64,000 nt of DNA from Candidatus Nanoarchaeia archaeon (lineage in GTDB: Archaea; Nanobdellota; Nanobdellia; Pacearchaeales; GW2011-AR1), in the NCBI GenBank assembly GCA_028718805.1, contig JAQUKY010000001.1, positions 80,384 to 144,383 of the forward strand. The letters run 5' to 3'. The notes beneath the pieces were generated by a model, which saw nothing but the letters and a program-made list of their open reading frames with translations, was not told the origin of the DNA and made no database searches. Made by a program: the position numbers and the translations under genes. Each line of letters begins with the position of its first letter. Positions within the stretch are counted from its first letter, which is position 1. Shown in pieces: positions 5,000 through 36,194 of the stretch.

Positions 5000-5009
5000 A
5001 AAAGACAAA

Positions 5010-19145: not shown

Positions 19146-19164
19146 TAGTGTATATTTTACACTA
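19146..19164 (-). promoter_or_regulatory. Predicted NrtR-type operator fused to the TATA box (nadK-nadD-nrtR promoter)
   Basis: Minus strand reads ATTTAAATAGTGTAAAATATACACTAAG. It has perfect 7-bp arms TAGTGTA/TACACTA with a 5-nt spacer, immediately 3' of TTTAAATA. Confidence 0.6.
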
Positions 19165-20239: not shown

Positions 20240-22764
20240 TTTCGTTGTTTTACAATCTCTGGCTTACTGCCTTTTTTTACTATCGTTAATCCTAAAAACT
20301 TTTTATCTTCTTCTGGGAAATCTTCTCTGAAATGACAGGCTCTGCTTTCCTCTCTTTTTAATGCACTTTCTAAAATTATACTTGCAACGTCTGCGATATT
20401 TCTAACTTCTAAAAAATCTTTTGCTAAGAAATAATCCCAATAAAACACATCGATTCCTTTTTGAAGTGCATTTAATTTTTGTATTGCAATCTCTAGTCTT
20501 TTCTTGTCTCTTGAAATTCCGCAAAGGTCAGTCATTACTCTTCTTATTGATTCCCAGTATTCTTCTATTAACTCCTGATGTTTTATCTTGGTTGCTTTTC
20601 CAACGTCCCATAATGGTATTTCTATATCTTTATTATCATGCTTCTTTGATAAAAAATGTTTTGCAGCAAGTCTCCCAAATAATATGCATTCTGGACCAGA
20701 ATTGCTTGCAAGACGTGTTGCCCCATGTAGTCCAGTGTATGATGTTTCCCCGAGTACATAACAGTTTTTTATGCTGGTTTCTGAATTTGAATCAACTAAC
20801 ACTCCTCCGTTTGAGTAATGAACTGCATAAACAATTGGGATAGGATCTTTTTTCATATCAAATCCCTTTTTAAGGCAGAAATCATAGGAATTCTTAAAAT
20901 CTTTTGTGAGCCTGCTTTCAGGGATTTTAGTGCAGTCTAACCATAAATGAGTTAAATTATTTTTTTTCATTTCCAGGTCTTCTGCCCGGCTTACAACATC
21001 ACGTGTTGCCTTTGAGCCAAGAGGATGGTACTTTAAAATGCAATCTTCTTTAGAATCTTTATAAGTCTTGATTATTGCTCCTGCTCCGCGCAGAGCTTCT
21101 GTTAATAAGAATCTTCTTTCGTTTTCATGTCTTGCCTTTAGGTCATAGAAAACACTTGGGTGAAATTGTATAAATTCCATATTTGCCAGAGGCAACCCTG
21201 CTCTGTAACACATTGCAAACCCGTCTCCTGTGGCAATATCTTTGTTGCTTGTGTATGAGAAAACTTTTCCAAGTCCTCCTGTGGCAACAAATGTTGCTTT
21301 GCAAGAAACAGTCTTGACATAATTCTTTTTTATATCATAGACATAAAATCCCAGGCATATATTTTTACCTTTTCTTCTTAATTTTTTGCTGGTTATTAAA
21401 TCAATAACAATGTGGTCTTCATGCAAAGTTATGTTTGGGTGAGTTCTTACTTTTTCACTGAGAATTTTCATTATAGTAATTCCTGTTGTGTCTTTTGCAT
21501 GAAATACTCTATTTCTGCTGTGCCCTCCTTCTATATGCAGATCATAAACATATCCTTTTTTTGATTTATCAAAATCAACTCCCTTTTGAACTAACCATTC
21601 TATAACATCTGGAAAAAAATGCTTTGAACAATATTCTACAATTTTCTTGTCATTTAGATATTTTCCTGCCATGAGCGTGTCTTTTACATGTTTTTCAAAT
21701 GAGTCTCCTTTTAACGGCTTGTTGTTAATTATTGGAACTGCAGTTAATCCCCCTGCTGCCAGATAACTATTGCAGTCTTTGAATAAGCTTTTCTTTACAA
21801 ATAAGTCTACTTTTTTACCTGCATCAGCTAATTCTAGTGCTACTGTGCATCCTGCAAATCCTCCCCCAATTACTCCACATTCAGTTCTTATCATATTTCT
21901 GTCCATGCCTAGGTCAACTGATCTTGCAGAGTGGGTTATTTCGCCTATTGAGATTCTTTCAACTCCTGTTTTAGCAATACTTCTAACATTCTCAAGGTTT
22001 ATGCCTCCTGATGCCTCTAGCAATGGCTTTTTATTTTTATTATTCTCATTTCTCATTAAAACTGCTTTTTTTAACTGTTGAGGGCTCATGTTATCCAAAA
22101 GGATTATATCTATCCCAGGAATTTTTAAAATATTTTTAAATTGATTTAAATTATCTACTTCTATTTCTATAAATTTTATTTTTTTCATTTTTTTTGCCTT
22201 GGTTACTATTTTATTTAATTGGTCGTATGTGTTTTTTCTAAGTTGTGCTAGATGATTGTCCTTGATAAGAACTGCATCATAAAGCCCTATTCTGTGATTG
22301 TTTCCCCCTCCACATTTAACAGCATATTTTTCCAATTGTCTCCAACCCGGAGTTGTTTTTCTTGTGTCGTATATTTTTGCGCTAGTCTCTTTTACTGCAT
22401 CTACATATTTACTAGTTAATGTTGCAATTCCGCTTAGTTTTTGCATAAAATTAAGAAGAACCCTTTCAGAATTTAGAATAGAATTTAAACGTCCTTCTAT
22501 TGTTGCTATCTTTTCTCCTTTATCAACTCTTTCTCCATCTTCTGCATATATCTTGACTTTTAGGCTTGGGTCATATTCTCTTAAAATTTCTGCAATGAGA
22601 TTTGTTCCGCATACGATTATTTCCTCCCGGGAAACAATGTTTGCACTTATAACTTCGTTATTTTCATGGAAGAGACTTGTTGTTACATCTCCGTTTCCGA
22701 AATCTTCTTTAACTGCCATCTTGATTAAATGAGGCAATCCCTTGAATTTTGTTTTGTTTTTCAT
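20236..22764 (-). CDS. nadC-nadB: Fusion: quinolinate phosphoribosyltransferase (NadC, N) plus L-aspartate oxidase (NadB, C)
   Basis: N about 290 aa: DTRKTTPGWRQLEKYAVKCGGGNNHRIGLYDAVLIKDNH. C about 550 aa: FAD fold GVIGGGFAGCTVALELA, FIQFHPS, GLHGATRLASNS. Confidence 0.9.
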   Translation of the reverse strand: MKNKTKFKGLPHLIKMAVKEDFGNGDVTTSLFHENNEVISANIVSREEIIVCGTNLIAEILREYDPSLKVKIYAEDGERVDKGEKIATIEGRLNSILNSERVLLNFMQKLSGIATLTSKYVDAVKETSAKIYDTRKTTPGWRQLEKYAVKCGGGNNHRIGLYDAVLIKDNHLAQLRKNTYDQLNKIVTKAKKMKKIKFIEIEVDNLNQFKNILKIPGIDIILLDNMSPQQLKKAVLMRNENNKNKKPLLEASGGINLENVRSIAKTGVERISIGEITHSARSVDLGMDRNMIRTECGVIGGGFAGCTVALELADAGKKVDLFVKKSLFKDCNSYLAAGGLTAVPIINNKPLKGDSFEKHVKDTLMAGKYLNDKKIVEYCSKHFFPDVIEWLVQKGVDFDKSKKGYVYDLHIEGGHSRNRVFHAKDTTGITIMKILSEKVRTHPNITLHEDHIVIDLITSKKLRRKGKNICLGFYVYDIKKNYVKTVSCKATFVATGGLGKVFSYTSNKDIATGDGFAMCYRAGLPLANMEFIQFHPSVFYDLKARHENERRFLLTEALRGAGAIIKTYKDSKEDCILKYHPLGSKATRDVVSRAEDLEMKKNNLTHLWLDCTKIPESRLTKDFKNSYDFCLKKGFDMKKDPIPIVYAVHYSNGGVLVDSNSETSIKNCYVLGETSYTGLHGATRLASNSGPECILFGRLAAKHFLSKKHDNKDIEIPLWDVGKATKIKHQELIEEYWESIRRVMTDLCGISRDKKRLEIAIQKLNALQKGIDVFYWDYFLAKDFLEVRNIADVASIILESALKREESRACHFREDFPEEDKKFLGLTIVKKGSKPEIVKQRK

Positions 22765-22766
22765 TT

Positions 22767-23675
22767 TTAACCTACACTTATCATCTTATTTAATGCTTTG
22801 CTGGCTTTAATCCTTATGTTTTCTGGAACATTTATCTCATACTGGTTTTTTTCAAGTGCTTCATAAACCTTTTTTAGAGTAGTTTTTTTCATGTTAGGGC
22901 ATGTTCCTCCAATTGAATAATACTTGTTCTCTGGGTTTTCTTTGATTAATCTATTAATCATATCTATTTCTGTTGCTAAAATTATTTGTTTGTTTTTATT
23001 TTCCTTTGCAAATTTAACCATTTTTTCTGTTGAGCAGATTTCATCTGCGTATTTTAAGACTTCTGCAGGACATTCAGGGTGCATTATAAGCTTTGCTTTT
23101 GGGTTTTGTTCTTTTGCAAGCTTTGCTTTTTCAGGAGAAATATTCTGATGGACATGACAGTAGCCCTGCCAGGGGATTATTTTCTTGTTTGTTTTTGTCT
23201 GAACATATGCACCAAGATTTTTATCAGGAATAAACAAAATTTCATTTTCCTTCATACTGTTTACAAGTTCAACTGCATTTCCAGAAGTACAACATGCATC
23301 TGATTCTGCTTTTATATTTGCATTTGTGTTTACATATGCAACGACTGCTGCTCCTGGATGCTGTTTTTTGAATTCTTTTAACTGTTTTACTGTTATCATT
23401 TCTGCCATAGGGCATCCTGCGTCAATTGCAGGGAGCAAGACTATTTTTTTTGGATTAAGTATTTTTGCAGTTTCTGCCATGAATTTGACTCCGCAGAAAA
23501 CTATTATGTCCTTGTCTGTTTCTGCAGCTTTTTTGCTTAATCCAAGAGAGTCTCCTATATAATCTGCAACTTCATATATTTCTGGTCTTTGATAGTTATG
23601 AACCAGTATGACTGCGTTTTTCTTTTTCTTTAATTCTTCAATTTTCCTGATTAGATTTTTTTCTTTATTTTCCAT
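22767..23675 (-). CDS. nadA: Quinolinate synthase
   Basis: About 300 aa with LVHNYQ, FCGVKFMAETAKIL and MHPECP contexts typical of NadA. Confidence 0.9.
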   Translation of the reverse strand: MENKEKNLIRKIEELKKKKNAVILVHNYQRPEIYEVADYIGDSLGLSKKAAETDKDIIVFCGVKFMAETAKILNPKKIVLLPAIDAGCPMAEMITVKQLKEFKKQHPGAAVVAYVNTNANIKAESDACCTSGNAVELVNSMKENEILFIPDKNLGAYVQTKTNKKIIPWQGYCHVHQNISPEKAKLAKEQNPKAKLIMHPECPAEVLKYADEICSTEKMVKFAKENKNKQIILATEIDMINRLIKENPENKYYSIGGTCPNMKKTTLKKVYEALEKNQYEINVPENIRIKASKALNKMISVG

Positions 23676-24111
23676 TTTTCTGCCTCCATATCTTATACTT
23701 TTCGATAATTTTTTTATGACTGAAAGCCATGTCAGGCAAGTTATCTAAGGGGAATTTTTTAACATCTGCTGCATCATCCCCTGGCTTTGTAACTCCGGTA
23801 TATTTTGTTGTAACATAGATTAAAGAGACTATATGCCCTCTTTCATTTTTGAGGGGATTATCTTTATGAGGATTTGATGTTTCGTGAAACAGCTCTAAAT
23901 CCTCTGTTTCTACATCTAAGCCTGTTTCTTCCTTAGCTTCTCTCCTGGCAGTTTGCCTCACGTTCTCTTCATCAACATTCAGAAACCCTCCCGGGAGTGC
24001 CCACAGACCTTTGTAAGGATTAAATTTTCTCTGAATCAAATATATCTCCCCATTATCTTCTATTATCAGGTCTGCAGTTACACTTGGTTTCTTAAAATTT
24101 TCTTGTTGCAT
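23665..24111 (-). CDS. Nudix hydrolase
   Basis: Nudix box GGFLNVDEENVRQTARREAKEETGL. Confidence 0.85.
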   Translation of the reverse strand: MQQENFKKPSVTADLIIEDNGEIYLIQRKFNPYKGLWALPGGFLNVDEENVRQTARREAKEETGLDVETEDLELFHETSNPHKDNPLKNERGHIVSLIYVTTKYTGVTKPGDDAADVKKFPLDNLPDMAFSHKKIIEKYKIWRQKNGK

Positions 24112-24112: not shown

Positions 24113-24874
24113 TTAACTCTTAATAGCCTCCATAATTTTATTCTTAAATTTTATATCTACATCATAGGATATAAATCTATTTTCTGCTGTTTTATTAAAC
24201 TTTACGAAATCTTCTCCTAAAGCAGCAGATACTGCCAGAGCATCGTACATTGGAAATTCAGTTCTTCCTGTATAATCTGCCCATCTTTTTGTGGATTCAT
24301 ATAAAAAGTTTCCTAATTCAGTTTTTTTAAGAGCTTCTAGTTCATTTAGTGTGAAACAAACTTTTTTTGAGACTTCATTAGTTATCTGGAAAATTTTCCA
24401 GGGCTGAGAGAATACTTTTTGTGCAGCTTCGTTATCTGTTATCATATTGTGAGTGCCTTCAGAACCCATTATATAAACTTCTTTAACATTTTTTATACTT
24501 GGATTGTTTTCAAGCTGAAAAGCAATGTTTGTTAAAAGACCTATGCAAATAAGCTTTGTATCTTTATCATATTCTGGAAACTTATTATTTTCTAAATTTT
24601 CATTAAGCTCCTGCTGAGTTAAAGCTAATGGCTCTATTCCTGTCCAGTATTTTTTTATCATATCTTTGCTTCCAGATTTGCCCGCGGTTATTGGAATGTT
24701 AATTCCCAAAATCCTCTCGAGCTTTCTTGCTATCTTCGCCCTTATTATTGTGTCTCCCTGAGTAATTGTTATTGCCTTTATGTCTGCATTATTTTTTATA
24801 GCATAAGCCAGTGCAAACGCATCATCGGGGTCTGTTCCGATGTCTGTATCAATTACGAAATTTGTTTTTGTCAT
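24113..24874 (-). CDS. Nucleoside hydrolase (IU-NH family, short form)
   Basis: N-terminal aspartate cluster IDTDIGTDPDDAFALAYA. It is 253 aa, shorter than the roughly 310 aa of typical Rih enzymes. Confidence 0.7.
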   Translation of the reverse strand: MTKTNFVIDTDIGTDPDDAFALAYAIKNNADIKAITITQGDTIIRAKIARKLERILGINIPITAGKSGSKDMIKKYWTGIEPLALTQQELNENLENNKFPEYDKDTKLICIGLLTNIAFQLENNPSIKNVKEVYIMGSEGTHNMITDNEAAQKVFSQPWKIFQITNEVSKKVCFTLNELEALKKTELGNFLYESTKRWADYTGRTEFPMYDALAVSAALGEDFVKFNKTAENRFISYDVDIKFKNKIMEAIKS

Positions 24875-25902
24875 TTTTTATTTTCAAATAATTTATCTAC
24901 GAGTTTCTTTGCTCTATTGAATCTTTCATCATAATTCCCGTTTATCTCAATAAATGAAACTTTTCTATCCCTGAACATTTTTTTTAATTTATCATTGTTG
25001 ATTTTTCTTGTTTCCTGCTCTCCTGCAAATCTTAGGCCATCTTCAACCCATTTTACATCAGGTTCCAGATATAAGACCAGGTCATAATCCTGTAATTTTA
25101 CTATTTCCTCTATTAATTTAGATTTTTCTTTTGGGCAGTACATGTCCAAATAGTACTGGGTTGTTATTGCTTCGCTGTCAATAAACAAAACTTTATTGCT
25201 CTGCTCTGCCCTTTTCTGCTGCAATAAAAAATGTTCCATTGCTATATGATTAAACATTTCCTTGGTTAACTGATTGGAATATTTCTTACTGTAATCTCTC
25301 CCCACTTCTTCCACATAATTTGTGTTGTAAAACTTTGCCAGTTTCTTTGTAAGGATTGTTTTTCCGCAGCTTTCTGTTCCAACTACTGCAACTTTTTTTG
25401 TGAAATAAGATCTTACACAGTTTGGAAGCTTATCCCAGTTTTCATAAAGATTTTTTCTCATTTCAGTAGCTGAAATTCTTACAGTGTTTCTTTTGTCATC
25501 TATTACAATGTGTTTTGAATCTGGGTAAAATTTTTTAAAAAGTTTACTATACTCATGTTCTGAACTAAACACATAATCAATAGGTTTGCCAATTGCTTTC
25601 TTTATTAAATTTGCCCCAGTTTCCCAGTCGTAATTATTTTCCCACCGATCATCTTCGATATGTATCAGTTTTATGTTCTCAAGATTATTTAATGATTCTC
25701 CAATCCAGGATAATCTGACTTCTGCAGGAATATACTTTATTCCATCTCTCTCGCAGATTTCTCTGTCTCTGTTTTTAGATGAAGTAACAACTACATAAAG
25801 TTCATCTACTTGGTTTGAAGCAGCAATTATTGCATACACATGCCCTAAATGAAAGGGCAGGAATTTCCCTCCTATGAAACCAACTGTCTTTTTATTTTCC
25901 AT
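24871..25902 (-). CDS. nadR: NadR-like bifunctional NMN adenylyltransferase / ribosylnicotinamide kinase (no HTH)
   Basis: GGKFLPFHLGHVYAI (HxGH) in the N half; P-loop VVGTESCGKTILTKKLA in the C half. Confidence 0.85.
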   Translation of the reverse strand: MENKKTVGFIGGKFLPFHLGHVYAIIAASNQVDELYVVVTSSKNRDREICERDGIKYIPAEVRLSWIGESLNNLENIKLIHIEDDRWENNYDWETGANLIKKAIGKPIDYVFSSEHEYSKLFKKFYPDSKHIVIDDKRNTVRISATEMRKNLYENWDKLPNCVRSYFTKKVAVVGTESCGKTILTKKLAKFYNTNYVEEVGRDYSKKYSNQLTKEMFNHIAMEHFLLQQKRAEQSNKVLFIDSEAITTQYYLDMYCPKEKSKLIEEIVKLQDYDLVLYLEPDVKWVEDGLRFAGEQETRKINNDKLKKMFRDRKVSFIEINGNYDERFNRAKKLVDKLFENKK

Positions 25903-26476
25903 TTTGAGTTTTATATGATCTATACCATTTAATTAATCCGGATGTTGCCAGGACCAGGAACACAGCATAAAGTCCTGTTGTCATGTACAATCCTTTGTAA
26001 GAGTATATGAATAGCGCCATTACATCTACTGAAATCCATAAAACCCAATTTTCAAGGATTTTTCTTCCCATTAACCATTGAGCAGTAAGGCTCATTACAG
26101 TTGTTAATGAATCCCAATAAGGAAGTGAAGCCCCGGTATAATTAGCCATAACATATCCAAGCAGCATTGTTACAACTATAATCTCAAGTGACCAGAATAT
26201 TATTCCCATTATTTTTAATCTTTTAACAGGAACACTATCTTTCTTTTTTTTATTACCATAAACCCAATAATACCATCCATAAATCTGCATGAAAATGTAT
26301 ATAAAATTTTCAAGAGTATCTGAATATAGCTTAACATTTAAGAATATGATTACGTAGAGAATTGTCATTGCAATTCCTGTTGGCCAGCACCATATATTCT
26401 GCTTTGTTGTGAAATAAACACTTAATACCCCAAGTATGACTGCTGCAAGCTCCAAAATAGTCATTAATTCTAGCAT
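25892..26476 (-). CDS. pnuC: Nicotinamide riboside transporter PnuC
   Basis: Multi-TM protein with the signature KQNIWCWPTGI and Trp-rich helices. Confidence 0.85.
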   Translation of the reverse strand: MLELMTILELAAVILGVLSVYFTTKQNIWCWPTGIAMTILYVIIFLNVKLYSDTLENFIYIFMQIYGWYYWVYGNKKKKDSVPVKRLKIMGIIFWSLEIIVVTMLLGYVMANYTGASLPYWDSLTTVMSLTAQWLMGRKILENWVLWISVDVMALFIYSYKGLYMTTGLYAVFLVLATSGLIKWYRSYKTQNGK

Positions 26477-27333
26477 CTTTTATTCCTCCAAGATTTATAT
26501 CTCTCCATTACCAAGTTATGGTCAAAGGCAAGTCTTGGGGTTTCTTCAAGAGTAGCCCAGTATAGTTCAGAAGCATCATCTCCTGCTTTTGGGATTCCTT
26601 TATAATTTTTTACAATAAAAATGTGGTCAATTACATGAGTTCTTGGATCTCTATCCGGAGATGAGTTAACCATCAGTAATTCTAAATCTTCTGGGTTAGT
26701 TTTGAGGTTTGTTTCTTCATCTAATTCTCTTACTGCAGTCTTTTCCAATGATTCTTTCATGTAATCAAGGAATCCTCCCGGTAGAGCTAACATTCCTTTG
26801 TAGGGTTCATGCTTCCTTTTAACATAGCAGATTTTCCCGTTTCTTTCAACAATCATTGATGCTGTTGAAGCTGGATTTTTAAATTCCATTTTACTCCATT
26901 GTTTTACTTGTTTAGCTAAATCGTTTATAGAATAGACAATTTTTATCTCAGGTCTGATTAATGCTGTTTGTATTTCAACATCTATTTTTCTTTTGTATTC
27001 TGGATGAACCCCTATGAAAACGGGTTTATCAGAGTTACTTTGTTTTCCAAGTTCATAGAGAGTTATTGGGCAAAGAGTTTCTTTTGGGAACCAGAATGAA
27101 ACTGCATCTGCCTTCCTGAGATGATTGTATTCCCATATTATCTGTTCTTTGTCTATGCCAGGCTTATCTGGAAATATTTTTCTTCTTGGATTTAATATCA
27201 CAATTTTTTCATCTTCTAGTAACTTTACTAATTCTGACTGCCAGTTTTGGCATCCTGTTATGCCTCCGGCTATGAACAAGGATTTTTCATCTTGTTTTCT
27301 TTCATATTCTTCAGGCGCTTCTGTGTATTTCAT
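26470..27333 (-). CDS. Fusion: nucleoside 2-deoxyribosyltransferase-like domain (N) plus Nudix hydrolase (C)
   Basis: N half: LFIAGGITGCQNW...ADAVSFWF...ITLYELG (NDT/SLOG-like, Glu in YELG). C half: Nudix box LPGGFLDYMKESLEKTAVRELDEETNL. Confidence 0.65.
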   Translation of the reverse strand: MKYTEAPEEYERKQDEKSLFIAGGITGCQNWQSELVKLLEDEKIVILNPRRKIFPDKPGIDKEQIIWEYNHLRKADAVSFWFPKETLCPITLYELGKQSNSDKPVFIGVHPEYKRKIDVEIQTALIRPEIKIVYSINDLAKQVKQWSKMEFKNPASTASMIVERNGKICYVKRKHEPYKGMLALPGGFLDYMKESLEKTAVRELDEETNLKTNPEDLELLMVNSSPDRDPRTHVIDHIFIVKNYKGIPKAGDDASELYWATLEETPRLAFDHNLVMERYKSWRNKRC

Positions 27334-27334: not shown

Positions 27335-28252
27335 TTATCTGTACTCCAAATTTATTTTAGCTATTGGGGGATGTAAAATTTCAGATTTCTTCTGAGCAAT
27401 TTTATTTCTCCTTAAAATGTCATATACAATTTTTTCAGTTGTGTTGAATTTTCTATTTCCATAAATTTTTTCATACTTTTGCATATCTTTTTCAGTATAT
27501 TCTTTAACTTGAGTATTTTCTATAAGGTTTTCAAGAGAGAATCCTTGTGTAAGACCCTCTGTTACTAATTCTACGGTTTCATACTCATAACCCAAGTCTT
27601 TGAAATCTGTTTGATTTGGTTCTATTCCTGCTGTTGGTGTTTTTTTTGCTATTTCGGGAAATCCGAGATATTCTGCCATCTGTTTCACTAATCTTTTTGA
27701 GAGATTTCCAATAGGAGAAAGATGAACAGCACCATCTCCGAATAAAGTATAATATCCTACACCAAAGTCTTCATCTTTATTTCCGGTTCCTAGCACTAAT
27801 TTTTGTTCTATGGCTGCTTTTGTTGATAAAATATTAGCCCTTATTCTTGCTATCAAGTTACCTTTGTCATATTCTTTGCCTACCTCAAAAATTCTTGGGT
27901 CAACAGTATAAAATCCTTCAATCGCTTTGTTTATGTCTATGACTTCATAGTCTATTGCAAGTTTTTTTGCAACATATGTCCCATCTATTGTATCTTTTTG
28001 CTCATTTAGTTTTGTTGGAAGCATATACCCAATTAATCCTAGTTTTCTGTCTTTCCTTCTATTGTTTTCATTATAATTATCAAATGCTTTTTTTGCTAAT
28101 GCTGCTGTTACTGTTGAATCTACTCCTCCGGATAATCCTATTACTCCCCCGGTATAGCCTATGCTGGTTATTTCATCTAAAATGAAATCTCCGATTTCAT
28201 CTGCTGCCTTTTCTGGATTCATGTATGGAAGTTTTATTTTTTCGTTTTTCAT
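27335..28252 (-). CDS. nadE: NH3-dependent NAD+ synthetase
   Basis: PP-loop GLSGGVDSTV, GNLIARIRANIL, GTGNKDEDFGVGYYTLFGDG. The start is set at MKNEKI, whose ATG overlaps the upstream TGA (ATGA). Confidence 0.85.
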   Translation of the reverse strand: MKNEKIKLPYMNPEKAADEIGDFILDEITSIGYTGGVIGLSGGVDSTVTAALAKKAFDNYNENNRRKDRKLGLIGYMLPTKLNEQKDTIDGTYVAKKLAIDYEVIDINKAIEGFYTVDPRIFEVGKEYDKGNLIARIRANILSTKAAIEQKLVLGTGNKDEDFGVGYYTLFGDGAVHLSPIGNLSKRLVKQMAEYLGFPEIAKKTPTAGIEPNQTDFKDLGYEYETVELVTEGLTQGFSLENLIENTQVKEYTEKDMQKYEKIYGNRKFNTTEKIVYDILRRNKIAQKKSEILHPPIAKINLEYR

Positions 28253-29184
28253 ATTTTTTCCTCCTCTAAAAAATAAGGTGTCAGGCAAAGCCTGCAGAAC
28301 TTATCCCTCATGAATTGTTCTATGTGTTTATCTGTGTTTGCAAGCAAAATAACATCGCTTGCTTTCAGATTTAGATTATGTTTTTTATTCAATTCTTTGA
28401 TTATTTTATCCTGGAGCGGCTTATATTTATTGTAAAGCTGTTGTGGTCTTATTTCATCCAAAATTCTGTCTGCTACAACCAGAGAGAATATATTCTTAAA
28501 CCATATATTCGCTTCAAGTGTTTCTATTGGCTCTCTGCTAAAAGTGAAACCTATCCTATAATAATACAAACCAAAAGGTTTGCTCATTGAAGTTACCACT
28601 GCGATTATGTTCTGATTGCTTAAATCGAATTTGTTATCTCTTGTTAAACCAGCATAACTAGTATCATAAACAACTTTGTGATATTTGCAGATCTCATTTA
28701 TAAATTCATTTTTGATTATGTTTCCATTTCTTGAAGAAGGGTTTGAGATGAAGAAGATTCCTGGATTTAATTTTGAAAACTCTTCATTTTCGTTAACTTC
28801 AATTATCTTTATTCCCATTTCCTTGGCATACTCTTTGTATCCTTCATATTCTCCCTTTAAAGTATAAATGGGTGCTTCAGGATTTTTTGTTTTTAGCTTA
28901 ACAAGCAAATGAAAAATACCTTCACTTGCTCCTGCTGTAAAATATCTATACTTAAAATCTTTTAAAGAGGGTAATTGTTTTTCATTATATCTTATAAACT
29001 TTCCAATTACTGGAAAGTGAAAGTCATCTAAGCCAGGAGTTATTGAACTAAGGAAGACTTTATGAGGATAGTTTTTAACAACTTCGTCTATAACTTTTCT
29101 TATTTCTGGGAAATAATAGCAATAGACTGTTCTTGTAGCTTTTAGCTTTTCTATTTCAATATTTTTTTGTTTTTGAATTTCCAT
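28249..29184 (-). CDS. PLP-dependent aminotransferase-fold protein (class I/II-like), function unknown
   Basis: TSMSKPFGL (Schiff-base Lys context), DTSYAGL and FISNPSSRNGN (degenerate NPxNPTG) in the expected order. Short (311 aa). Confidence 0.5.
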   Translation of the reverse strand: MEIQKQKNIEIEKLKATRTVYCYYFPEIRKVIDEVVKNYPHKVFLSSITPGLDDFHFPVIGKFIRYNEKQLPSLKDFKYRYFTAGASEGIFHLLVKLKTKNPEAPIYTLKGEYEGYKEYAKEMGIKIIEVNENEEFSKLNPGIFFISNPSSRNGNIIKNEFINEICKYHKVVYDTSYAGLTRDNKFDLSNQNIIAVVTSMSKPFGLYYYRIGFTFSREPIETLEANIWFKNIFSLVVADRILDEIRPQQLYNKYKPLQDKIIKELNKKHNLNLKASDVILLANTDKHIEQFMRDKFCRLCLTPYFLEEEKI

Positions 29185-29185
29185 T

Positions 29186-30046
29186 TTAAATTAAAATTGC
29201 CCCCTTATACTGCCAGTCATATCTTAGATGACCATCTGGAAAAAATATTATCTGCCTTAGGTTATCTGAATCTGGCTCTATTGTTAATGCATCTGTAATG
29301 CATATATTCTGCCCGTGAACATCGTAGACTTTTGCTCCATCATGAAAAGTCATAAGTTTGTTTCCATTTCTAATTACAAAGTTTCTTATTTTTGTCATTT
29401 CTGATTCTTTGATGAGATTTTCTGCAGTCCATGCAGCAATTTCATTATCTTCAGAATGTTTTGGCATTGCGAGTTTTCTTATGCTTAGATGCTCTAATTT
29501 CCATTCTTTAGCTTTTTCAATAAGATTCTTTACTTCTTCTGGATTGTCAATAAATCCTTTTAGCATAGTGCAGCTTATTCTTACTGAAAATCCAATAATA
29601 TGCAGTTTTTTAATTAAATTTTCAAGTTCAGGATATTCCTCTGAGAATATTTCCTTGTTTCTTTCTTGTTTATAATGAACTGCAGACAGAGCTATCATTG
29701 TTAATCCTAGAGTATACCATCTTTTCAGATGTTTGTTATAGCTTTCTTGGGTAAGTAAAATCCCATTTGTCTGTAATTCAATTAGTGGAAAATTGAATCT
29801 TTTTAAATTTTCCAGGAATTTTGTTATTTGCTTTGGATAAAGAGTTGGCTCTCCTTTTCCTGTTATCAAAACAGTCGTAATTCCTTTTATTTCTGCTAAC
29901 CTGCATGCTTTTTCAAAATTCCTCCAGTTAACTCTTGGTTCTTCTAAGCTAATCCCTTGTTTAGGAGTCATTTTTGATATGCAATAAGGGCAGTGCGCAT
30001 TGCATGCTGTTGTTCCTGCGACTATGCTAAATGTTTGTATTTTCAT
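29186..30046 (-). CDS. Radical SAM enzyme, function unknown
   Basis: CNAHCPYC (CxxxCxxC) at residues about 15-22, GKGEPTLYP (GGE-like) and ELQTNGILL. Confidence 0.8.
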   Translation of the reverse strand: MKIQTFSIVAGTTACNAHCPYCISKMTPKQGISLEEPRVNWRNFEKACRLAEIKGITTVLITGKGEPTLYPKQITKFLENLKRFNFPLIELQTNGILLTQESYNKHLKRWYTLGLTMIALSAVHYKQERNKEIFSEEYPELENLIKKLHIIGFSVRISCTMLKGFIDNPEEVKNLIEKAKEWKLEHLSIRKLAMPKHSEDNEIAAWTAENLIKESEMTKIRNFVIRNGNKLMTFHDGAKVYDVHGQNICITDALTIEPDSDNLRQIIFFPDGHLRYDWQYKGAILI

Positions 30047-30513
30047 ATTTTGCCTCCTGGTTTATAACCGCTTATCATCAAGAAACCGTTTCCGGCTAAT
30101 TTTAGTGTTTCCTGCTCTTTTAATCCCAGAGTTTTTCCGCTCATTATCTCCCAAAGTCCAAGAGCCTTTCCTAAAGCCATTGTTCTTAATGCTTCTTCTT
30201 GTTCTACTTCTAAATTAGGGGCTAGTTCAATATAACTTGGCCCCCCAGCAAGCCTGTCTTTTTGGGGGTAATCTTCTAATAGAGTTTCTAATTCTTTTTT
30301 TCTTGCCTTTGCTTTTTCTTTGTCAACTAAGACATCTACAAAGATCATATCTATTTTTTCATATTTTTCATTATTCGGAGCTTCTGAAGTATGAGGATAG
30401 CCAAATATCTCCACAACATGTAGATTCCCAGTATTTCTTTCCTCAATTACCCCTCCTTTTCTGTAAACTCTCGTAGTTTCCTGCAGTATGTCATAAAGTT
30501 TCTCAGTGTTCAT
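30043..30513 (-). CDS. Hypothetical protein (156 aa)
   Basis: Overlaps both neighbours by 4 and 11 nt; no motif recognised. Confidence 0.5.
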   Translation of the reverse strand: MNTEKLYDILQETTRVYRKGGVIEERNTGNLHVVEIFGYPHTSEAPNNEKYEKIDMIFVDVLVDKEKAKARKKELETLLEDYPQKDRLAGGPSYIELAPNLEVEQEEALRTMALGKALGLWEIMSGKTLGLKEQETLKLAGNGFLMISGYKPGGKI

Positions 30514-30781
30514 TTTTTTTACCTCCGTAGCTAAAAATAAGCCTGTTACATCGGTCTGTTTGGGATCCTGTGAAGTGATAAACTTTCCAGTGAGGGCTGT
30601 ATATCTGAATTAGTTTGTCAATAGCTTCTCTTGAAGTATTGTCTAGAAGATCAAATGCAACTTCTCGTGTTCCATTAAAAGTTGCTTCAAGAAACTTATC
30701 AATTTCTATTTCTAGGCTTTTGACAGTTTCATTGTCATTTCTTATTTTTCTTTCAATTAATGGTTCTGGTATGATTACCAT
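30503..30781 (-). CDS. Hypothetical small protein (92 aa), paralog of 31133..31390
   Basis: Shares MVI(I/T)P start, LExxIDxxLE, IYxxxWxV and QxxxxxxLxF with the 85-aa ORF. Confidence 0.45.
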   Translation of the reverse strand: MVIIPEPLIERKIRNDNETVKSLEIEIDKFLEATFNGTREVAFDLLDNTSREAIDKLIQIYSPHWKVYHFTGSQTDRCNRLIFSYGGKKNEH

Positions 30782-31131
30782 CTTCCGGCTCCTTCCCCAA
30801 AATCTGGGATTTTTGTTATACTATCTTTAGCTCGAGTTGTGATTTGTTCAAGCCCGCATCTAGTGCAGGTTCTTTTCCATCTTGGTTCTGTTTTTGCTGA
30901 AACATAAGTTGGTCCTCTCCAGTCAACACCCATTGTTCCTGGTTTATCTCCAGGAATAGTATATGCTGATGTGTAAATTGGGTCATAAATTGTCTTGCTA
31001 TATTCATGCTGACATCTTCTTTCGTAATCTCTAAGTTCGTTTCTAGCTCTGTCAGATTTTTCATTAGCTTTATTAACTTCTTCATTGGTTCTTTTTACTA
31101 TTTCACGTAATTCTCTTGCTCTGTTTTCCAT
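30775..31131 (-). CDS. Hypothetical protein (118 aa; N-terminal coiled coil, Cys/His cluster)
   Basis: RRCQHE ... CTRCG. Translationally coupled to both neighbours. Confidence 0.45.
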   Translation of the reverse strand: MENRARELREIVKRTNEEVNKANEKSDRARNELRDYERRCQHEYSKTIYDPIYTSAYTIPGDKPGTMGVDWRGPTYVSAKTEPRWKRTCTRCGLEQITTRAKDSITKIPDFGEGAGRW

Positions 31132-31132
31132 T

Positions 31133-31390
31133 TTATTCTCTGCCTCCGGTTTTCATTTCTTTAAAACTTAGATAGTTTCCTTCTCTTTGGTCTGATTCAT
31201 AACTGACCTCCCAGCCAGCTTTTTCATATATATGAGTTATTTCTTGAACTACTTTTTCTCCAGGATATTCATTTATATCGAAAGTATTTTCCCCTTCCAA
31301 TAATGCCTGGTCAATTCTCTTCTCCAGACCTTTAAGCAGGGCTTTATCTGCTTTTGTCAGAGCTTTTGCTTCTTGAGGTGTGATTACCAT
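31133..31390 (-). CDS. Hypothetical small protein (85 aa), paralog of 30503..30781
   Basis: The start is trimmed to MVITPQ (ATG 1 nt after the pncA TAA). The longer track ORF would overlap pncA by 83 nt. Confidence 0.45.
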   Translation of the reverse strand: MVITPQEAKALTKADKALLKGLEKRIDQALLEGENTFDINEYPGEKVVQEITHIYEKAGWEVSYESDQREGNYLSFKEMKTGGRE

Positions 31391-31391
31391 T

Positions 31392-32129
31392 TTACAATTT
31401 TCCCTCCAAAACCTGTTTAGTTGTAATGAGTTTGGCACCAGCTTTTGACATTTCTTCAAGTGCTTTATTTCCAAATTCAGGATCTACTTTTCCTTCAAAA
31501 TTTATATTAACAGCTTCTATTGCATCAGTTACCACATAAATCTCCAATGGTTTTTGATATTTGTCTCTAATTTCCGCCATTTTCAGAACTGCTGCTTTAT
31601 CACAATAGTCTGTTGCAAAACCATTTACAATGACTCTTTGTAGGCCTTTGTCAAGCAATTTTTTAAATGCTGGCTCAAAATTAGGATTTGTCCCAACATT
31701 ATAGTTCTGCTTTTCAAAAATTAAGTGCATCTTATTTTTTTCTGCAGCTTCTGTATACTTCTCTAGTTCATTGTTAGTATAAATCTTAATTCCCAGTTCA
31801 GGCCCATCCTTTGCTCTTATATAAATGTCTTTTTGAGGTTCTAGTTCTTTTAGCCTTAACTGACCCCAGGTTCCATTCATGCAATGATCATCAAATACCC
31901 CTCCCTGGTTTCTTATTAATTCTGCATCTTCGTAAAAATGCCTGTCTACTGACCCGAGAAACAGATAGTTGTTATCAATTGCATTTTTATGTATTGCAAA
32001 TATATTCGGGAGTCTTTCTTCTGCACCATAAGGCAATGCTGTTTTTGGCTTGTTAGCTCTTACAAACAATGCTCCTTCTCTTACACTAAAGTCGTACTGA
32101 ACATCTGTTTCATAAATTGCAGTTTTCAT
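31392..32129 (-). CDS. pncA: Isochorismatase-family nicotinamidase
   Basis: N-terminal Asp (ETDVQYDF), metal-site context SVDRHF...DDHC, and nucleophile Cys in GFATDYCDKAAV. Confidence 0.7.
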   Translation of the reverse strand: MKTAIYETDVQYDFSVREGALFVRANKPKTALPYGAEERLPNIFAIHKNAIDNNYLFLGSVDRHFYEDAELIRNQGGVFDDHCMNGTWGQLRLKELEPQKDIYIRAKDGPELGIKIYTNNELEKYTEAAEKNKMHLIFEKQNYNVGTNPNFEPAFKKLLDKGLQRVIVNGFATDYCDKAAVLKMAEIRDKYQKPLEIYVVTDAIEAVNINFEGKVDPEFGNKALEEMSKAGAKLITTKQVLEGKL

Positions 32130-32130: not shown

Positions 32131-33324
32131 TTATTTTATACCTCCTAATCTTAGTTTTAGTTTTGGATTTGGATTGTATTGTCTTCCGACTTTTGCAATC
32201 GGAACAAAATGTTCTGGATCTTCTCCAACAGCAACTATGTCCATTTTTGATGCCCTTGATTCGAAAATCTGGCCTACACCAAGACCTTCAAATAGTTTTG
32301 TTCCTAACAATTTCTCTGCTCTTACAAATGCCTCGACCTTTTTTGGTTCTGCAAAACCACTTGATAACCAGATTTGCAAATTTTTGTAATTATTTTCATC
32401 AAGAGCTTTTCTCATGGCATAAGTCCCTGTTACAGTCACTCCTCTGTCAAACCAGTATTTCTCATCTTCTTTAGGAATGATTACTTTTTTTCCAACTAAT
32501 CTCTCAAGTTTCTTTTCATCTTTAAATTCTAAAGCTCCTTCTCCGGCATTTTCACCACATGTATCTATTCTTGGGCCATGAAGCCTGTTTTTCAGAGCTT
32601 TGGCTGTATCTAAAGTGTCTGTAATTTCTTTATTTCTGTAATCACATAAAATTATTCTTGGAACTTCTGGTTCAATGTGTTTATCAAAAGCAATCATTGT
32701 TTCTGAAACAGCTCTTTCGTAGCCATATTTTGCAGCCATTATATTTTCTAGAACGTGAGGAGTTGTTCCCATTCCTTTTTTCCCTGCTGTTGCTGCACCA
32801 ATATCTGTTGAAGCGCTTGTTGCACCTGCTTCAAAAGCTGCTTTTGTAATTGCTGCATCTTCATCATATCTCCAGTGCCTTGCACCAAAATAAGAAATAA
32901 ACCTTCCTTCTGCAGCTTTCACAACGTACCTCATATTTTTTCTTACTAAGTCTAAATCTATTCCGTGCTTATCGTTCGCTTTTGTAGTTTCTGCTGCTAA
33001 AACTCCTAGATACATTGTTTCTAAATCCACAATGTCTTGGATTGGAGCCTCAATAAGCATAAGTGTTTCTTTCGGCTGATAAGATTCTCCTTCATTTAGT
33101 GCATAAACTCTTCCTTTATGAGCAACTAAATTGCTGTATTTATCAAGAATTGCAAGAGCTTCATTTATTCCATAAACTTTTCCAGGCCCTTTTCTTATAA
33201 ATATCTGTGCTCTTACCCAAGGATTGATACCTTCTGCTTCAAGTATTTTCTTTGCTCTTAGAAAATATTTGTCAATATAAGAAGCATATTCATCAGGCAG
33301 ATTAAATTTTTTTGTTTGTGCCAT
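32131..33324 (-). CDS. pncB: Nicotinate phosphoribosyltransferase (archaeal/type II PRTase-like)
   Basis: GTTPHVL, ILCDYR, PRIDTCGE, IWLSSGF and LGVGQIF align in order with conserved blocks of archaeal NAPRTases as I recall them. Confidence 0.75.
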   Translation of the reverse strand: MAQTKKFNLPDEYASYIDKYFLRAKKILEAEGINPWVRAQIFIRKGPGKVYGINEALAILDKYSNLVAHKGRVYALNEGESYQPKETLMLIEAPIQDIVDLETMYLGVLAAETTKANDKHGIDLDLVRKNMRYVVKAAEGRFISYFGARHWRYDEDAAITKAAFEAGATSASTDIGAATAGKKGMGTTPHVLENIMAAKYGYERAVSETMIAFDKHIEPEVPRIILCDYRNKEITDTLDTAKALKNRLHGPRIDTCGENAGEGALEFKDEKKLERLVGKKVIIPKEDEKYWFDRGVTVTGTYAMRKALDENNYKNLQIWLSSGFAEPKKVEAFVRAEKLLGTKLFEGLGVGQIFESRASKMDIVAVGEDPEHFVPIAKVGRQYNPNPKLKLRLGGIK

Positions 33325-33332: not shown

Positions 33333-33746
33333 TTATTTTTTACCTCCTTCATTTACAAACATCATCTGCATTTTTCCTACTATATCCGGCGTCTCAACTT
33401 TATTTAGAAAACATCCTGTCTGATAAAATTCAATTATTTCTCCTTGAGGGTCATAAACATCGCCTTGTAAAAGCCTTCTTGCAGTTACATGCCATCCGTC
33501 AGGGTAGATATCATAAGGTCCGTGTCCTGTACCTCCTCCGCCATAATAAGTTTTTTCAACAACATACCTTGCTTTTTCTCTTTCTTGGTCTATATGCCCC
33601 CTAAATTTCATAGGGCCTGCTACATTAAAGCGTCCTTTTTGAAATAGATTAGGATTTTCTATAATTCCTTCTATTCCGACTTGTGGGATTTTTATTACAT
33701 CCCCTATCTGGACTAGTTTTTGTTTTGTTAGTGTATTATTTAACAT
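33333..33746 (-). CDS. Hypothetical protein (137 aa), first gene of the NAD operon
   Basis: Gly-rich loop YYGGGGTGHGPYDIYPDGWH; no family recognised. Confidence 0.5.
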   Translation of the reverse strand: MLNNTLTKQKLVQIGDVIKIPQVGIEGIIENPNLFQKGRFNVAGPMKFRGHIDQEREKARYVVEKTYYGGGGTGHGPYDIYPDGWHVTARRLLQGDVYDPQGEIIEFYQTGCFLNKVETPDIVGKMQMMFVNEGGKK

Positions 33747-33750: not shown

Positions 33751-33769
33751 TAGTGTAGTAAATACACTA
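33751..33769 (-). promoter_or_regulatory. Predicted NrtR-type operator fused to the TATA box (main NAD operon promoter)
   Basis: Minus strand reads GTTTAAATAGTGTATTTACTACACTAACTTATG. It has the same arms and 5-nt spacing as the site at 19146. The palindrome lies between the TATA box and the ATG, which implies a leaderless mRNA. Confidence 0.6.
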
Positions 33770-34804: not shown

Positions 34805-34992
34805 TTTTAATAAGCTTTTTGACCTATTTTTTAAGAAATCACCTGATTTCCCTTATTATGGGTGATTTATAAACTTAATCTTTGTTTGAGCGTTTTTGAG
34901 GGTCCAAAATCTGTTGATATAATGACTAAATTACCGAACTATTTTTACAAAACTATAGAAAGCTTTAAATTTATATTTAGTCTGTGTATGTT

Positions 34993-35643
34993 ATGAAAGA
35001 GGTTTATTATGCTAAGTCATTGGAGGAGGATTTTGTTACAAAAACTCTAAAAGGGAAGAAGAAAGTAGCTTTTCAATCTGTTGAAAATATCGTAAAGAGG
35101 AAAGTAATACTGCCTAACACAAAAAGTTTTGGCAGGCAAATGAGGCTGTCTTGCACAGCAATTGATAAAAACTATCTAAAAACCTACAGGCCTCAGGGAA
35201 TAATCTTTAAAACAGGACAAAAACCAGAATACATACTTCCTTTTGATCTTGTGCTTCTAAGCGCGACAAACAATATAATTGTACATTATTACAGGATAAA
35301 AAATAATCTCCATGTTTATTACAATCATACTCTTATACCGGGATTTCAAAAATTTATATTTAAAGATTTTAATAAACTTAAGAAAAAATTCCCTACTTTA
35401 AAGAGTATCTGGAAAGAAGTAAATAAGTTCAGGAAGTCAGCAGGCTATCAAAGTCTGCCAATGCAGAAACACCGGCTTGTGGAATATAATGAAGCGGTAT
35501 TTTATGAGTCGGTAAAAATAACCCCTGTTGCCATTTTTGGTTACAGAAAAGAGGCAAGGAAAATAGCTAGGCAGTTGGGTTTGCCCTATTTTGTATCTGC
35601 AAAACAGTTTTACAAAGATTTAACTAACAGAAAAATAAAATGA
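34993..35643 (+). CDS. Hypothetical protein (216 aa) coupled to nadM
   Basis: ATG at 34993 (the track ORF starts at GTG 34984). The stop overlaps the nadM start (ATGA). Confidence 0.45.
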   Translation: MKEVYYAKSLEEDFVTKTLKGKKKVAFQSVENIVKRKVILPNTKSFGRQMRLSCTAIDKNYLKTYRPQGIIFKTGQKPEYILPFDLVLLSATNNIIVHYYRIKNNLHVYYNHTLIPGFQKFIFKDFNKLKKKFPTLKSIWKEVNKFRKSAGYQSLPMQKHRLVEYNEAVFYESVKITPVAIFGYRKEARKIARQLGLPYFVSAKQFYKDLTNRKIK

Positions 35644-36194
35644 AAAAGTCAGTCCTGATTATTGGCAGATTTCAGCCGTTTCATACCGGGCATTTGGAAT
35701 TAATTAAGAAATATTGCAGACTTGGATATTTTATTAAAATCGGCATAGGTTCTGTAAACAAGCCATGTGACTTAAAAAATCCTCTTACTTTTAAAGAAAG
35801 GGCAAATATTATCAGGGGAGTTCTAAAAGATAACAAAATAAAAGATTATGAATTATACAGCATTCCGGATATACCAAGAGACAGCTTATATGCAGGACAT
35901 GTTTCCAAGATAGTTGGAAAATATGATTTGGTTATTACTGGAAATATGCTGATAAAAAATATTTTCCTGAAATATTGCTCTTCTTCAGCTACATGCAGGG
36001 TTGATTATTTCAATGAAAAAGTTAATAGAATAAAAGAGATAAAAGCAAAGAATATAAGAAAGAGATGGCTGTTCAGCAAACCTAATAAAAAAGAAATTTC
36101 AAAATCCACTTTTGGTTATTTAAAAAAGGCAAAGTTCTCTGACAGGCTGAAAGAAATTTACAATTTTAAAAGGATAAAAGTCAGGGAGATATAA
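35640..36194 (+). CDS. nadM: NMN adenylyltransferase, archaeal NadM type
   Basis: IGRFQPFHTGH ((H/T)xGH of the archaeal NMNAT family); about 180 aa. Confidence 0.8.
   Translation: MKKSVLIIGRFQPFHTGHLELIKKYCRLGYFIKIGIGSVNKPCDLKNPLTFKERANIIRGVLKDNKIKDYELYSIPDIPRDSLYAGHVSKIVGKYDLVITGNMLIKNIFLKYCSSSATCRVDYFNEKVNRIKEIKAKNIRKRWLFSKPNKKEISKSTFGYLKKAKFSDRLKEIYNFKRIKVREI

Follow-up and report, generated by a model that had tools for sequence, protein, structure and literature searches.

We describe a pair of adjacent genes, encoding a radical S-adenosylmethionine (SAM) enzyme (rSAM below) and a pyridoxal phosphate (PLP)-dependent enzyme, in a genome of Candidatus Nanoarchaeia (assembly GCA_028718805.1). 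The window analysed is a stretch of 64,000 nucleotides of contig JAQUKY010000001.1 (positions 80,384 to 144,383), and coordinates given without a locus name refer to it. The pair belongs to a module that is common to DPANN archaea, bacteria of the candidate phyla radiation (CPR), other bacteria and large phages, and this module very probably has a role in NAD homeostasis. In the reading that we favour, an undescribed module, with rSAM as its core and the PLP enzyme as an accessory, belongs to the NAD-homeostasis regulon controlled by NrtR, and the two enzymes act by the mechanism proposed below; taken as a whole, this reading has a little less than an even chance of being right.

The two genes lie inside an uninterrupted array of minus-strand genes, running from about 33746 to 17089. 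They were found exactly where the preliminary description of this DNA had placed them, with the motifs that it had reported:

29186-30046, minus strand: radical SAM enzyme of 286 residues, core gene of a new family (open reading frame call, Pfam and NCBIfam, AlphaFold2 model, Foldseek, conservation within the family)
28249-29184, minus strand: fold-type I PLP enzyme of 311 residues, HisC/CobD-like, with catalytic Lys202, accessory of rSAM (Pfam and NCBIfam, AlphaFold2, Foldseek, 50 homologues)

The translational coupling claimed in that description could also be read in the sequence. The TAA stop codon of rSAM is followed, after 1 base, by the ATG of the PLP gene, and the TGA of the latter overlaps the ATG of nadE in an ATGA preceded by GGAGGA. 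Because of this overlap behind GGAGGA, we place the start of nadE at 28252 rather than at an upstream TTG at 28288. The open reading frame (ORF) of 156 residues upstream of rSAM ends by overlapping the rSAM ATG, again as ATGA.

The preliminary description had asked for linkage of the pair to NAD genes across genomes. ORFs were called in the loci compared and clustered, hidden Markov models of the recurring families were built, and six-frame translations were rescanned with them; linkage was counted as an NAD gene within 10 kb in 80 GTDB species-level loci, and 46 full-length viral loci were considered separately. NAD genes stood within 10 kb of rSAM in 55 of the 80 cellular loci, in variable order. 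This was the case for 20 loci that had the PLP gene (17 others had it without an NAD gene) and for 35 loci that lacked it (against 8 without an NAD gene). NadK was the gene most often found near rSAM (40 of 80 loci), followed by nicotinate phosphoribosyltransferase (NAPRT; 37), PncA (36), NMNAT (23), NadE and glutamine-type NadE (17 each), NadA (16), ADP-ribosylglycohydrolase (14), NadR (13) and PnuC (10); the commonest direct neighbours were PncA and NAPRT. The orders encountered include 'NAPRT PncA rSAM PLP NadE ...', '... NadK NMNAT rSAM NrtR', 'NadA NadC rSAM NadB' and, with NrtR on the opposite strand, 'NadC NadA NadB PLP rSAM <-NrtR'. In Obscuribacterales, NadR, a tandem NadD-NadD, NadK and rSAM follow each other, and in loci L190, L207 and L212 (L numbers designate the loci compared) the gene for NrtR adjoins rSAM. 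rSAM is thus co-transcribed or co-regulated with genes of the Preiss-Handler pathway, of de novo synthesis and of NAD phosphorylation. When rSAM sequences were clustered by identity (unweighted pair group method with arithmetic mean), NAD-linked and unlinked members were interleaved, as were members with and without the PLP gene. The loci of Chloroflexota, Acidobacteriota and Holophagae that are devoid of NAD genes showed no coherent alternative gene context. By inspection of the cellular loci, presence of the PLP gene correlated neither with the type of NadE (NH3- or glutamine-dependent) nor with the presence of NadA.

A second line of evidence is regulatory. Both intergenic gaps of the array contain TTTAAATA followed by a perfect palindrome, TAGTGTA-N5-TACACTA, which occurs 2 times in the window versus 0.18 expected by chance. 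One copy stands 5 nt before the first gene of the rSAM/PLP unit and the other before nadK. The preliminary description had called the operon putatively NrtR-controlled, and a gene for this repressor is indeed present at the end of the array:

33751-33769, no strand assigned: predicted NrtR-type operator TAGTGTAGTAAATACACTA, directly downstream of TTTAAATA, heading the NAPRT-PncA-rSAM-PLP-NadE unit (palindrome search; recurs in related loci)
19146-19164, no strand assigned: second predicted NrtR-type operator TAGTGTATATTTTACACTA, 27 nt upstream of the NAD kinase gene (palindrome search)
17089-17769, minus strand: NrtR repressor, with a Nudix domain and the NrtR winged-helix domain NrtR_WHD (PF21906, 2.3e-25)

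Published NrtR motifs are palindromes of about 21 bp with a GT-N7-AC core (Rodionov et al. 2008, PMC2330246), and the GTA-N5-TAC of the present palindrome fits this core. The palindrome was sought, one mismatch being allowed, in 3.1 Mb in total, with four composition-matched patterns as controls. It gave 54 matches in 46 of the 80 GTDB loci (controls, 0-1) and 29 matches in 26 of 80 loci fetched via the PLP protein; none was found in 80 viral loci. The gene just downstream of the operator was most often rSAM (17) or NAPRT (16), then NadK (4), PncA and NadE (3 each), NadA and NrtR (2 each). In Collierbacteria and Woesebacteria, isolated rSAM-PLP pairs, which have no NAD genes around them, are flanked by rpsG and fusA, and the operator lies on their promoter. 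In the Collierbacteria type of promoter, TTGACA is followed after 17 nt by a -10 box that is inside the operator, and the ATG of rSAM comes 1-2 nt after the operator, so that the transcript is predicted to be leaderless. In locus L037 of Anaerolineales, a TTGACA-17-TATACT promoter is followed by two operators. Since the palindromic operator precedes the operon or rSAM itself, even in isolated pairs, and since NrtR is encoded in some of the loci, we conclude from these sequence comparisons that rSAM regularly belongs to a predicted NrtR-type NAD regulon, whether or not the PLP gene accompanies it.

Several further observations concern the operator and its surroundings. In DPANN archaea it follows a TATA-like box, and in bacteria of the CPR and Chloroflexi it overlaps the sigma-70 -10 box; carriers include the window, L003, L004, L035, L037 and about 70 other loci. 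As the same operator occurs in archaea and bacteria, the NrtR regulator, its site and the regulon appear to have been transferred jointly between the two domains. The operon of L037 (L037:8430-12991) comprises three radical SAM enzymes in a single unit under NAD-type operators, namely a HemN/STM4012-like enzyme of 485 residues, the rSAM of the present family and a MoaA-like enzyme of 262 residues, together with the PLP enzyme and a protein of 147 residues. In six loci of Collierbacteria and Woesebacteria (L004, L005, L008, L039, L051 and L058, around positions 5000-7130), a gene of the MTTB family (non-Pyl trimethylamine methyltransferase-like), accompanied by small ORFs, diverges from the operator-bearing region of the rSAM-PLP pair. 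That this gene is linked to NAD by demethylating a pyridine betaine, for instance trigonelline, is speculative.

The two genes of the pair are not equal partners. Among 57 loci with enough flank that were obtained by searching metagenome contigs for the PLP family, 54 contained rSAM, usually immediately upstream of the PLP gene and sometimes immediately downstream ('NadA PLP rSAM'). The reverse does not hold: the PLP gene is present in about 46% of the cellular rSAM loci, and is missing from 43 of 80 cellular and from all 46 viral ones. Because of this asymmetry the PLP enzyme is regarded as a dedicated accessory, and rSAM is the core gene on which it depends. One ORF (P0341, at L250:1730-3730) encodes both proteins as a single chain of 666 residues with the two active-site motifs, its PLP part being 36% identical to the PLP protein (E 7e-72). 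It is found on a single 3.7-kb Logan contig, beside a response regulator, and is either a genuine fusion or the product of a frameshift at the point where the stop and start codons overlap. Other unusually long rSAM ORFs had been considered as domain fusions and proved to be start-codon artefacts. No conserved small partner protein that could act as a reductant or carrier was found beside rSAM in the loci compared.

The family is large. Homologues of rSAM fell into 1522 clusters at 90% identity (E<=1e-5), the best 120 listed clusters being 52-100% identical over 91-100% of the query, and into 410 clusters at 50% identity (E<=1e-30) among 1.84 billion representatives. Relatives were detected in at least 230 GTDB species genomes, which belong to Nano-, Woese-, Pace- and Aenigmatarchaeota among the archaea, to Collier-, Woese-, Lloyd- and Sungbacteria, Parcubacteria and bins labelled Saccharibacteria among the CPR, and to Obscuribacterales, Chloroflexota, Acidobacteriota and Planctomycetota among other bacteria. 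Archaeal and bacterial members are still about 50% identical.

Relatives of rSAM are also encoded by 128 viral contigs of IMG/VR, many of which are 100-460 kb long and about 46 of which carry a full-length gene (30-60% identity); the viral status of these contigs is the one assigned in the database. No tblastn match was obtained in 50,697 deposited phage genomes, so that the viral evidence consists of the IMG/VR contigs only. NAD genes are present in 13 of the 46 full-length viral loci, where rSAM is usually inside or beside a Preiss-Handler set, as in 'PncA rSAM NAPRT NMNAT NadE' (L095-97, L099) and 'NAPRT NadE rSAM PncA' (L107; similarly L108 and L121). NadK, like the PLP gene, is found in none of the 46. 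Viral rSAM genes are surrounded by genes for a CCA-adding enzyme, RNA ligases, RtcB, Thg1, an HNH endonuclease and a sigma factor, a neighbourhood that fits auxiliary gene islands of large phages. On the large contigs L095-L099, L107, L108 and L121, the set of PncA, NAPRT, NMNAT and NadE with rSAM is often near such RNA-repair genes (CCA-adding enzyme, RNA ligase, RtcB, Thg1). On three other viral contigs, a DeoC/LacD-family aldolase is encoded beside or near rSAM (L124:8852-9502, L123:9315-9965, L090:2737-3396). Together with nucleoside 2-deoxyribosyltransferase-like (NDT-like) neighbours, this aldolase hints at deoxy-sugar chemistry, in what is a small sample.

Profile and structure searches, which the preliminary description had recommended for both proteins, returned matches at the superfamily level and no confident assignment of either to a known pathway. 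rSAM matches PF04055 (Radical_SAM, 1.6e-13). Its cluster motif C15-x3-C19-x2-C22 (CNAHCPYC) and the glycine-glutamate-proline G65-E66-P67 of GKGEPTLYP are invariant in the family, and the AlphaFold2 model (mean predicted local distance difference test score, pLDDT, 90.7) shows 6 beta/alpha units. The best NCBIfam models were MoaA (TIGR02666; 59.2 bits, cut-off 284) and viperin (NF038283; 38.8 bits, cut-off 180), a tungsten-cofactor maturase model being also among the best matches; NrdG2 (2.5e-7) and PflA (1.2e-5) were matched weakly. Among PDB sequences only MoaA was found, with E 4e-5 (phmmer) and 3e-6 (profile). Foldseek likewise ranked MoaA first (2fb2/1tv7; template modelling score, TM, 0.70; E 2e-11), then viperins (TM 0.65-0.72, root mean square deviation, rmsd, 3.6-4.0 A), followed by SuiB, NifB and BlsE (7vob, TM 0.51).

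In spite of this likeness, which extends to the N-terminal CxxxCxxC, GxGEP and TNG motifs and to aligned basic residues, rSAM is not a MoaA in the curated sense. Its score is far below the cut-off, it has 286 residues versus about 330 and, in the alignment, it shows neither a CxxCxnC motif nor any other auxiliary-cluster cysteines in its C-terminal part, C249 being the sole conserved cysteine beyond residue 160. Its context is NAD rather than the molybdenum cofactor: moaB, moaC, moaD and moaE were not among the recurrent annotated neighbour clusters of about 170 loci. rSAM resembles viperin and prokaryotic viperin (ddhNTP synthase) in size, in having one cluster and in its partial barrel, and of all the fold matches these gave the lowest rmsd; viperin acts on the ribose of a nucleotide, which is the chemistry that we propose for rSAM. 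Membership in the viperin family was nonetheless rejected, as the identity is 11-14%, the score is well under the cut-off, and rSAM has NAD genes as neighbours and occurs in NAD operons and phages rather than in defence islands. No SPASM or twitch domain was detected by Pfam or in the fold, the C-terminal end of the 286-residue protein being made of beta-hairpins without a cysteine motif, and a peptide maturase of this type was rejected as well. rSAM is therefore a single-cluster enzyme of the MoaA/viperin fold.

R156, R190, R264 and K64 are invariant, and C249 is part of a GQNxC motif found in all groups. The same 36 core residues are conserved in rSAMs accompanied by the PLP gene, in those devoid of it and in viral ones, and no specificity-determining position separating these three groups was found in the alignment. 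On these grounds, the predicted reaction is taken to be the same in all contexts. R156 and R190 align with K163 and R192 of MoaA, which we take to be triphosphate-binding residues. This alignment, and the conservation of K64 and R264 in all groups, suggests by analogy that the substrate is phosphorylated and anionic.

The PLP protein matches PF00155 (Aminotran_1_2, 3.3e-10) and has its lysine in SMSK202PFGL. In NCBIfam it was closest to HisC (TIGR01141; 39.9 bits versus a cut-off of 276.6) and CobD (TIGR01140; 34.2 versus 290.6), and its AlphaFold2 model (pLDDT 92.7) to CobD (3fkd) and HisC (2f8j), with E about 1e-14 and a TM of only about 0.65. Across 50 homologues, K202, D174, N148, Y177, S199/S201 and R210 are invariant or nearly so, from which the protein is recognisable as a fold-type I enzyme with an intact predicted active site. 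It shares with HisC and CobD this PLP-binding set (N148, D174, Y177, SxSK202, R210) and two C-terminal arginines, but it is shorter (311 residues) and has invariant motifs of its own in the same homologues, i.e. VYxYYFPExR, GEYEGY, WFKN and R293...R298-x-C300-LTPYF. C300, two residues after R298, lies in a predicted beta-strand of the model. An identity as HisC or CobD was rejected on account of the low scores and of the lack of his or cob genes nearby. The preliminary description had stated that no known step of NAD metabolism needs either chemistry. For PLP this is too broad, because kynureninase belongs to the tryptophan route, and NadA of Bacillus subtilis requires NifS. The window protein corresponds to neither, as the Aminotran_5, kynureninase and cysteine desulfurase families were absent from its Pfam, NCBIfam and PDB matches, and a class V enzyme of the kynureninase or NifS type was discarded.

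What might the pair do? The contexts of rSAM comprise PncA and NAPRT, NadA, NadB and NadC, NadD, NadE and NadK, and we infer that their common denominator is the deamidated trunk NaMN -> NaAD -> NAD(P), with ADP-ribose, the effector of NrtR. MoaA, viperin and BlsE each act by removing a hydrogen from a nucleotide or nucleoside sugar, radical SAM epimerases and reductive dehydratases use a cysteine as hydrogen-atom donor, and HisC and CobD act on phosphorylated amines and ketones. Tentatively, and with a probability that we place somewhat below one half, the mechanism could be as follows. ADP-ribose would signal NAD breakdown and cause NrtR to leave the operator, so that the module is expressed. 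rSAM would then cleave SAM reductively, and the 5'-deoxyadenosyl radical would take a hydrogen from the ribose of a pyridine-nucleotide derivative that is phosphorylated and anionic (NaMN, NaAD, NAD(P) and ADP-ribose are candidates), the phosphates being held by R156, R190, R264 and K64, with C249 as a candidate donor of the hydrogen atom. This would dehydrate, epimerise or rearrange the substrate, and thereby either bring an otherwise unusable compound back into the NAD pool or yield a modified one. In loci that encode it, the PLP enzyme would act on a carbonyl or amine of the same metabolite; a transamination or decarboxylation is plausible, because its relatives HisC and CobD handle phosphorylated amines and ketones.

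The preliminary description had argued for an unrecognised reaction linked to pyridine nucleotides or ADP-ribose. The link to NAD stands, through the 55 of 80 loci and the operator; the reaction itself is what we infer. Chances are about even that rSAM performs a genuinely new step of NAD metabolism, i.e. radical chemistry on a pyridine nucleotide or ADP-ribose within the NrtR regulon of DPANN and CPR organisms, co-opted by phages as a fourth, Preiss-Handler-based NAD reconstitution pathway, the PLP enzyme leading to an amino derivative or a salvageable intermediate.

Several points weigh against this reading. There was no NAD gene within the fetched flank in 33 of the 46 viral and 25 of the 80 cellular loci. 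The role given to the PLP enzyme leaves without explanation the 54% of cellular loci and all the viruses that lack its gene. The substrate class is deduced only from fold similarity (TM about 0.7, 11-18% identity) and from conserved basic residues, and the other positions that presumably bind triphosphate in MoaA (K69, R71) are not conserved in rSAM. One SAM is spent per turnover of a radical SAM enzyme, which is expensive for salvage. Furthermore, genes for all known steps of the Preiss-Handler, de novo and riboside routes are present in the window, so that no gap in these pathways demands rSAM. Binding of NrtR to the operator is a prediction and, all functional reasoning being comparative, so are substrate, product and activity.

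We considered the possibility that the module serves metabolite repair rather than a new conversion. rSAM, with C249, would re-epimerise or re-oxidise damaged pyridine nucleotides without O2, its candidate substrates being alpha-anomers or the 1,2- or 1,6-dihydro isomers of NAD(P)H. Such repair would still be nucleotide-directed chemistry, as a special case that serves another biological purpose. The invariance of the GQNxC cysteine in all groups, a residue such as radical SAM epimerases use, the fold of nucleotide-acting radical SAM enzymes, the frequent partnership with NAD kinase, which stands at the end of the pathway, and the mostly anaerobic lifestyle of the carriers, which lack O2-dependent repair of the renalase type, are all consistent with it. 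Yet repair leaves the PLP partner without a role and is hard to square with the Preiss-Handler cassette of phages, and the commonest direct neighbours, PncA and NAPRT, do not handle NAD(P)H. We consider it unlikely.

Alternatively, rSAM and the PLP enzyme could jointly make a pyridine precursor (iminoaspartate, quinolinate, nicotinate or a new intermediate) from an amino acid, PLP holding the aldimine while rSAM generates the radical, as in an aminomutase. The tight coupling of the pair, the fusion protein, the 'NadA PLP rSAM NrtR' operons without nearby NadB (L190, L212) and the stand-alone CPR pairs under an NAD operator, which look like a self-contained route answering NAD demand, would agree with such a supply. 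If this were the function, however, rSAM should not occur with identical conserved residues in the many cellular and viral loci that lack the PLP gene, nor together with complete NadA/NadB/NadC sets (window, L207), and the PncA of the viral sets indicates nicotinamide as the input. Known PLP-radical enzymes, moreover, bind PLP within the radical SAM barrel and not on a separate fold-type I protein. The joint synthesis of a precursor is thus improbable.

Another possibility is that rSAM modifies or activates an NAD enzyme, and that the PLP enzyme provides sulfur through C300 for the assembly or repair of Fe-S clusters, in the manner of NifS. The size of rSAM and its single N-terminal cluster resemble those of activating enzymes, in line with the weak NrdG2 and PflA matches; the one-way dependence of the PLP gene on rSAM would suit a helper that host or housekeeping machinery can replace, C300 is invariant in its family, and nad loci with a PLP enzyme have a precedent in NifS of B. 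subtilis. Beside rSAM, though, neither a glycyl-radical enzyme nor a conserved substrate protein was found, and the SPASM/twitch domain typical of peptide maturases is lacking. The PLP fold is that of HisC and CobD (class I/II) and not the class V of NifS, IscS and SufS, and the predicted beta-strand position of C300 differs from the mobile loop expected. A maturation or support function therefore appears very doubtful.

Finally, the pair might have an unrelated function and be merely co-located or co-regulated with NAD genes, for example as a viperin-like nucleotide dehydratase in defence or counter-defence, or as an aminonucleoside-type pair. In pairs of the BlsE/BlsH and PolH/PolI type, a MoaA-like radical SAM enzyme acts on the sugar of a nucleoside or nucleotide and a PLP aminotransferase follows, a combination characteristic of peptidyl-nucleoside pathways. 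The structural neighbours of rSAM include viperin and BlsE, the gene resides in auxiliary islands of phages with RNA-repair genes, and the loci without NAD genes mentioned above would be accounted for. Against this, isolated pairs have the NAD operator right on their promoter, and although gene order is scrambled, linkage has been kept in archaea, several bacterial phyla and viruses. Defence-island, moaBCDE and his genes are not nearby, the scores are far below the family cut-offs and the second-cluster cysteine motif is missing; the BlsE fold match is weak and no other antibiotic-pathway genes are present. We hold such a function to be quite improbable, and a divergent MoaA/HisC pair is its least likely form.

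The remaining genes of the array, from its upstream end, are:

33333-33746, minus strand: ORF of 137 residues, function unassigned, first gene after the operator (no family match in Pfam or NCBIfam)
32131-33324, minus strand: NAPRT of the archaeal type (PRK08662, 2.6e-40, below cut-off; QRPTase_N domain)
31392-32129, minus strand: nicotinamidase PncA, isochorismatase family (domain match; clusters with PncA of other loci)
30043-31474, minus strand: four small ORFs (113, 118, 92 and 156 residues) in the PncA-rSAM interval, without family match
27335-28252, minus strand: NH3-dependent NAD synthetase NadE, whose start overlaps the PLP stop (Pfam and NCBIfam, junction reading)
26470-27333, minus strand: fusion of an NDT-like domain and a Nudix domain, 287 residues (Pfam)
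25892-26476, minus strand: PnuC, nicotinamide riboside transporter (domain match)
24871-25902, minus strand: NadR-like NMN adenylyltransferase/ribosylnicotinamide kinase (domain match)
24113-24874, minus strand: nucleoside hydrolase, IU_nuc_hydro (domain match)
23665-24111, minus strand: Nudix hydrolase (domain match)
22767-23675, minus strand: quinolinate synthase NadA (translation; clusters with NadA of other loci)
20236-22764, minus strand: NadC-NadB fusion of quinolinate phosphoribosyltransferase and L-aspartate oxidase, 842 residues (domain match)
19220-20239, minus strand: ADP-ribosylglycohydrolase (similarity)
18331-19119, minus strand: NADK2-type NAD kinase with GGDG, NE and TGTGS motifs (motifs, structure match)
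17766-18341, minus strand: NMN/NaMN adenylyltransferase NMNAT (domain match)

None of the five small ORFs (113, 118, 92, 156 and 137 residues) matched a family in Pfam or NCBIfam. The four that separate PncA from rSAM are conserved in close relatives only, the 156-residue one in L001 and L002. The NAD kinase matches mitochondrial NADK2 (PDB 7r4j, E 7e-14) better than PpnK of archaea or bacteria (E about 1e-3), and NAD is its putative substrate. Both fusions, NadC-NadB and NDT-like-Nudix, are unusual, and NDT-like genes recur near rSAM in other loci, as stand-alone proteins of 150 residues or as NDT-Nudix fusions of 390-426 residues. Just upstream of the operon and divergent from it (34984-36194, plus strand), an ORF of 219 residues and a second cytidylyltransferase-like gene of the NMNAT type overlap each other by 4 nt.

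Compared with known systems, the regulon resembles the one described for NrtR in PMC2330246 by its NrtR gene, its GT-N7-AC palindrome and the sites before pncA/pncB, nadE, nadA, pnuC-nadR and draG-like genes. It differs from it in being shared between DPANN archaea and CPR bacteria, and in containing a radical SAM enzyme and a class I/II PLP enzyme, for which text searches of PMC2330246 and later papers gave no mention. The viral sets recall the phage NAD reconstitution pathways NARP1 (Adps and Namat), NARP2 (NadV and NMNAT) and NARP3 (PnuC and NadR), which are likewise phage-encoded NAD-synthesis sets that presumably restore NAD. The viral loci differ in that they carry PncA, NAPRT, NMNAT and NadE with rSAM, and the defining NARP pairs were not encountered; none of NARP1-3 includes PncA, NAPRT, NadE or a radical SAM enzyme, and a term search of the NARP1/2 preprint and the NARP3 paper gave no mention of PncA, NadE or such an enzyme. 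Full-text literature searches disclosed no work linking rSAM to NAD genes or NrtR, and papers on a Ralstonia jumbo phage and on cyanophages that name radical SAM and NAD genes concern unrelated genes. We rate rSAM as a new functional family of MoaA/viperin-like radical SAM enzymes, with a new family of PLP enzymes as its partner.

The biosynthesis and salvage of NAD are considered completely mapped and, to our knowledge, no known route uses a radical SAM enzyme. The size of the family, its linkage to NAD genes in archaea, bacteria and phages and the shared, predicted ADP-ribose-responsive operator point to a missing reaction or quality-control step. If this is true, rSAM would offer enzymologists a small single-cluster radical SAM enzyme with a defined list of candidate substrates. 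Phages would possess a new NAD-restoring module beside NARP1-3, relevant to NAD-depleting immunity, and the metabolic reconstructions of DPANN and CPR symbionts would change.

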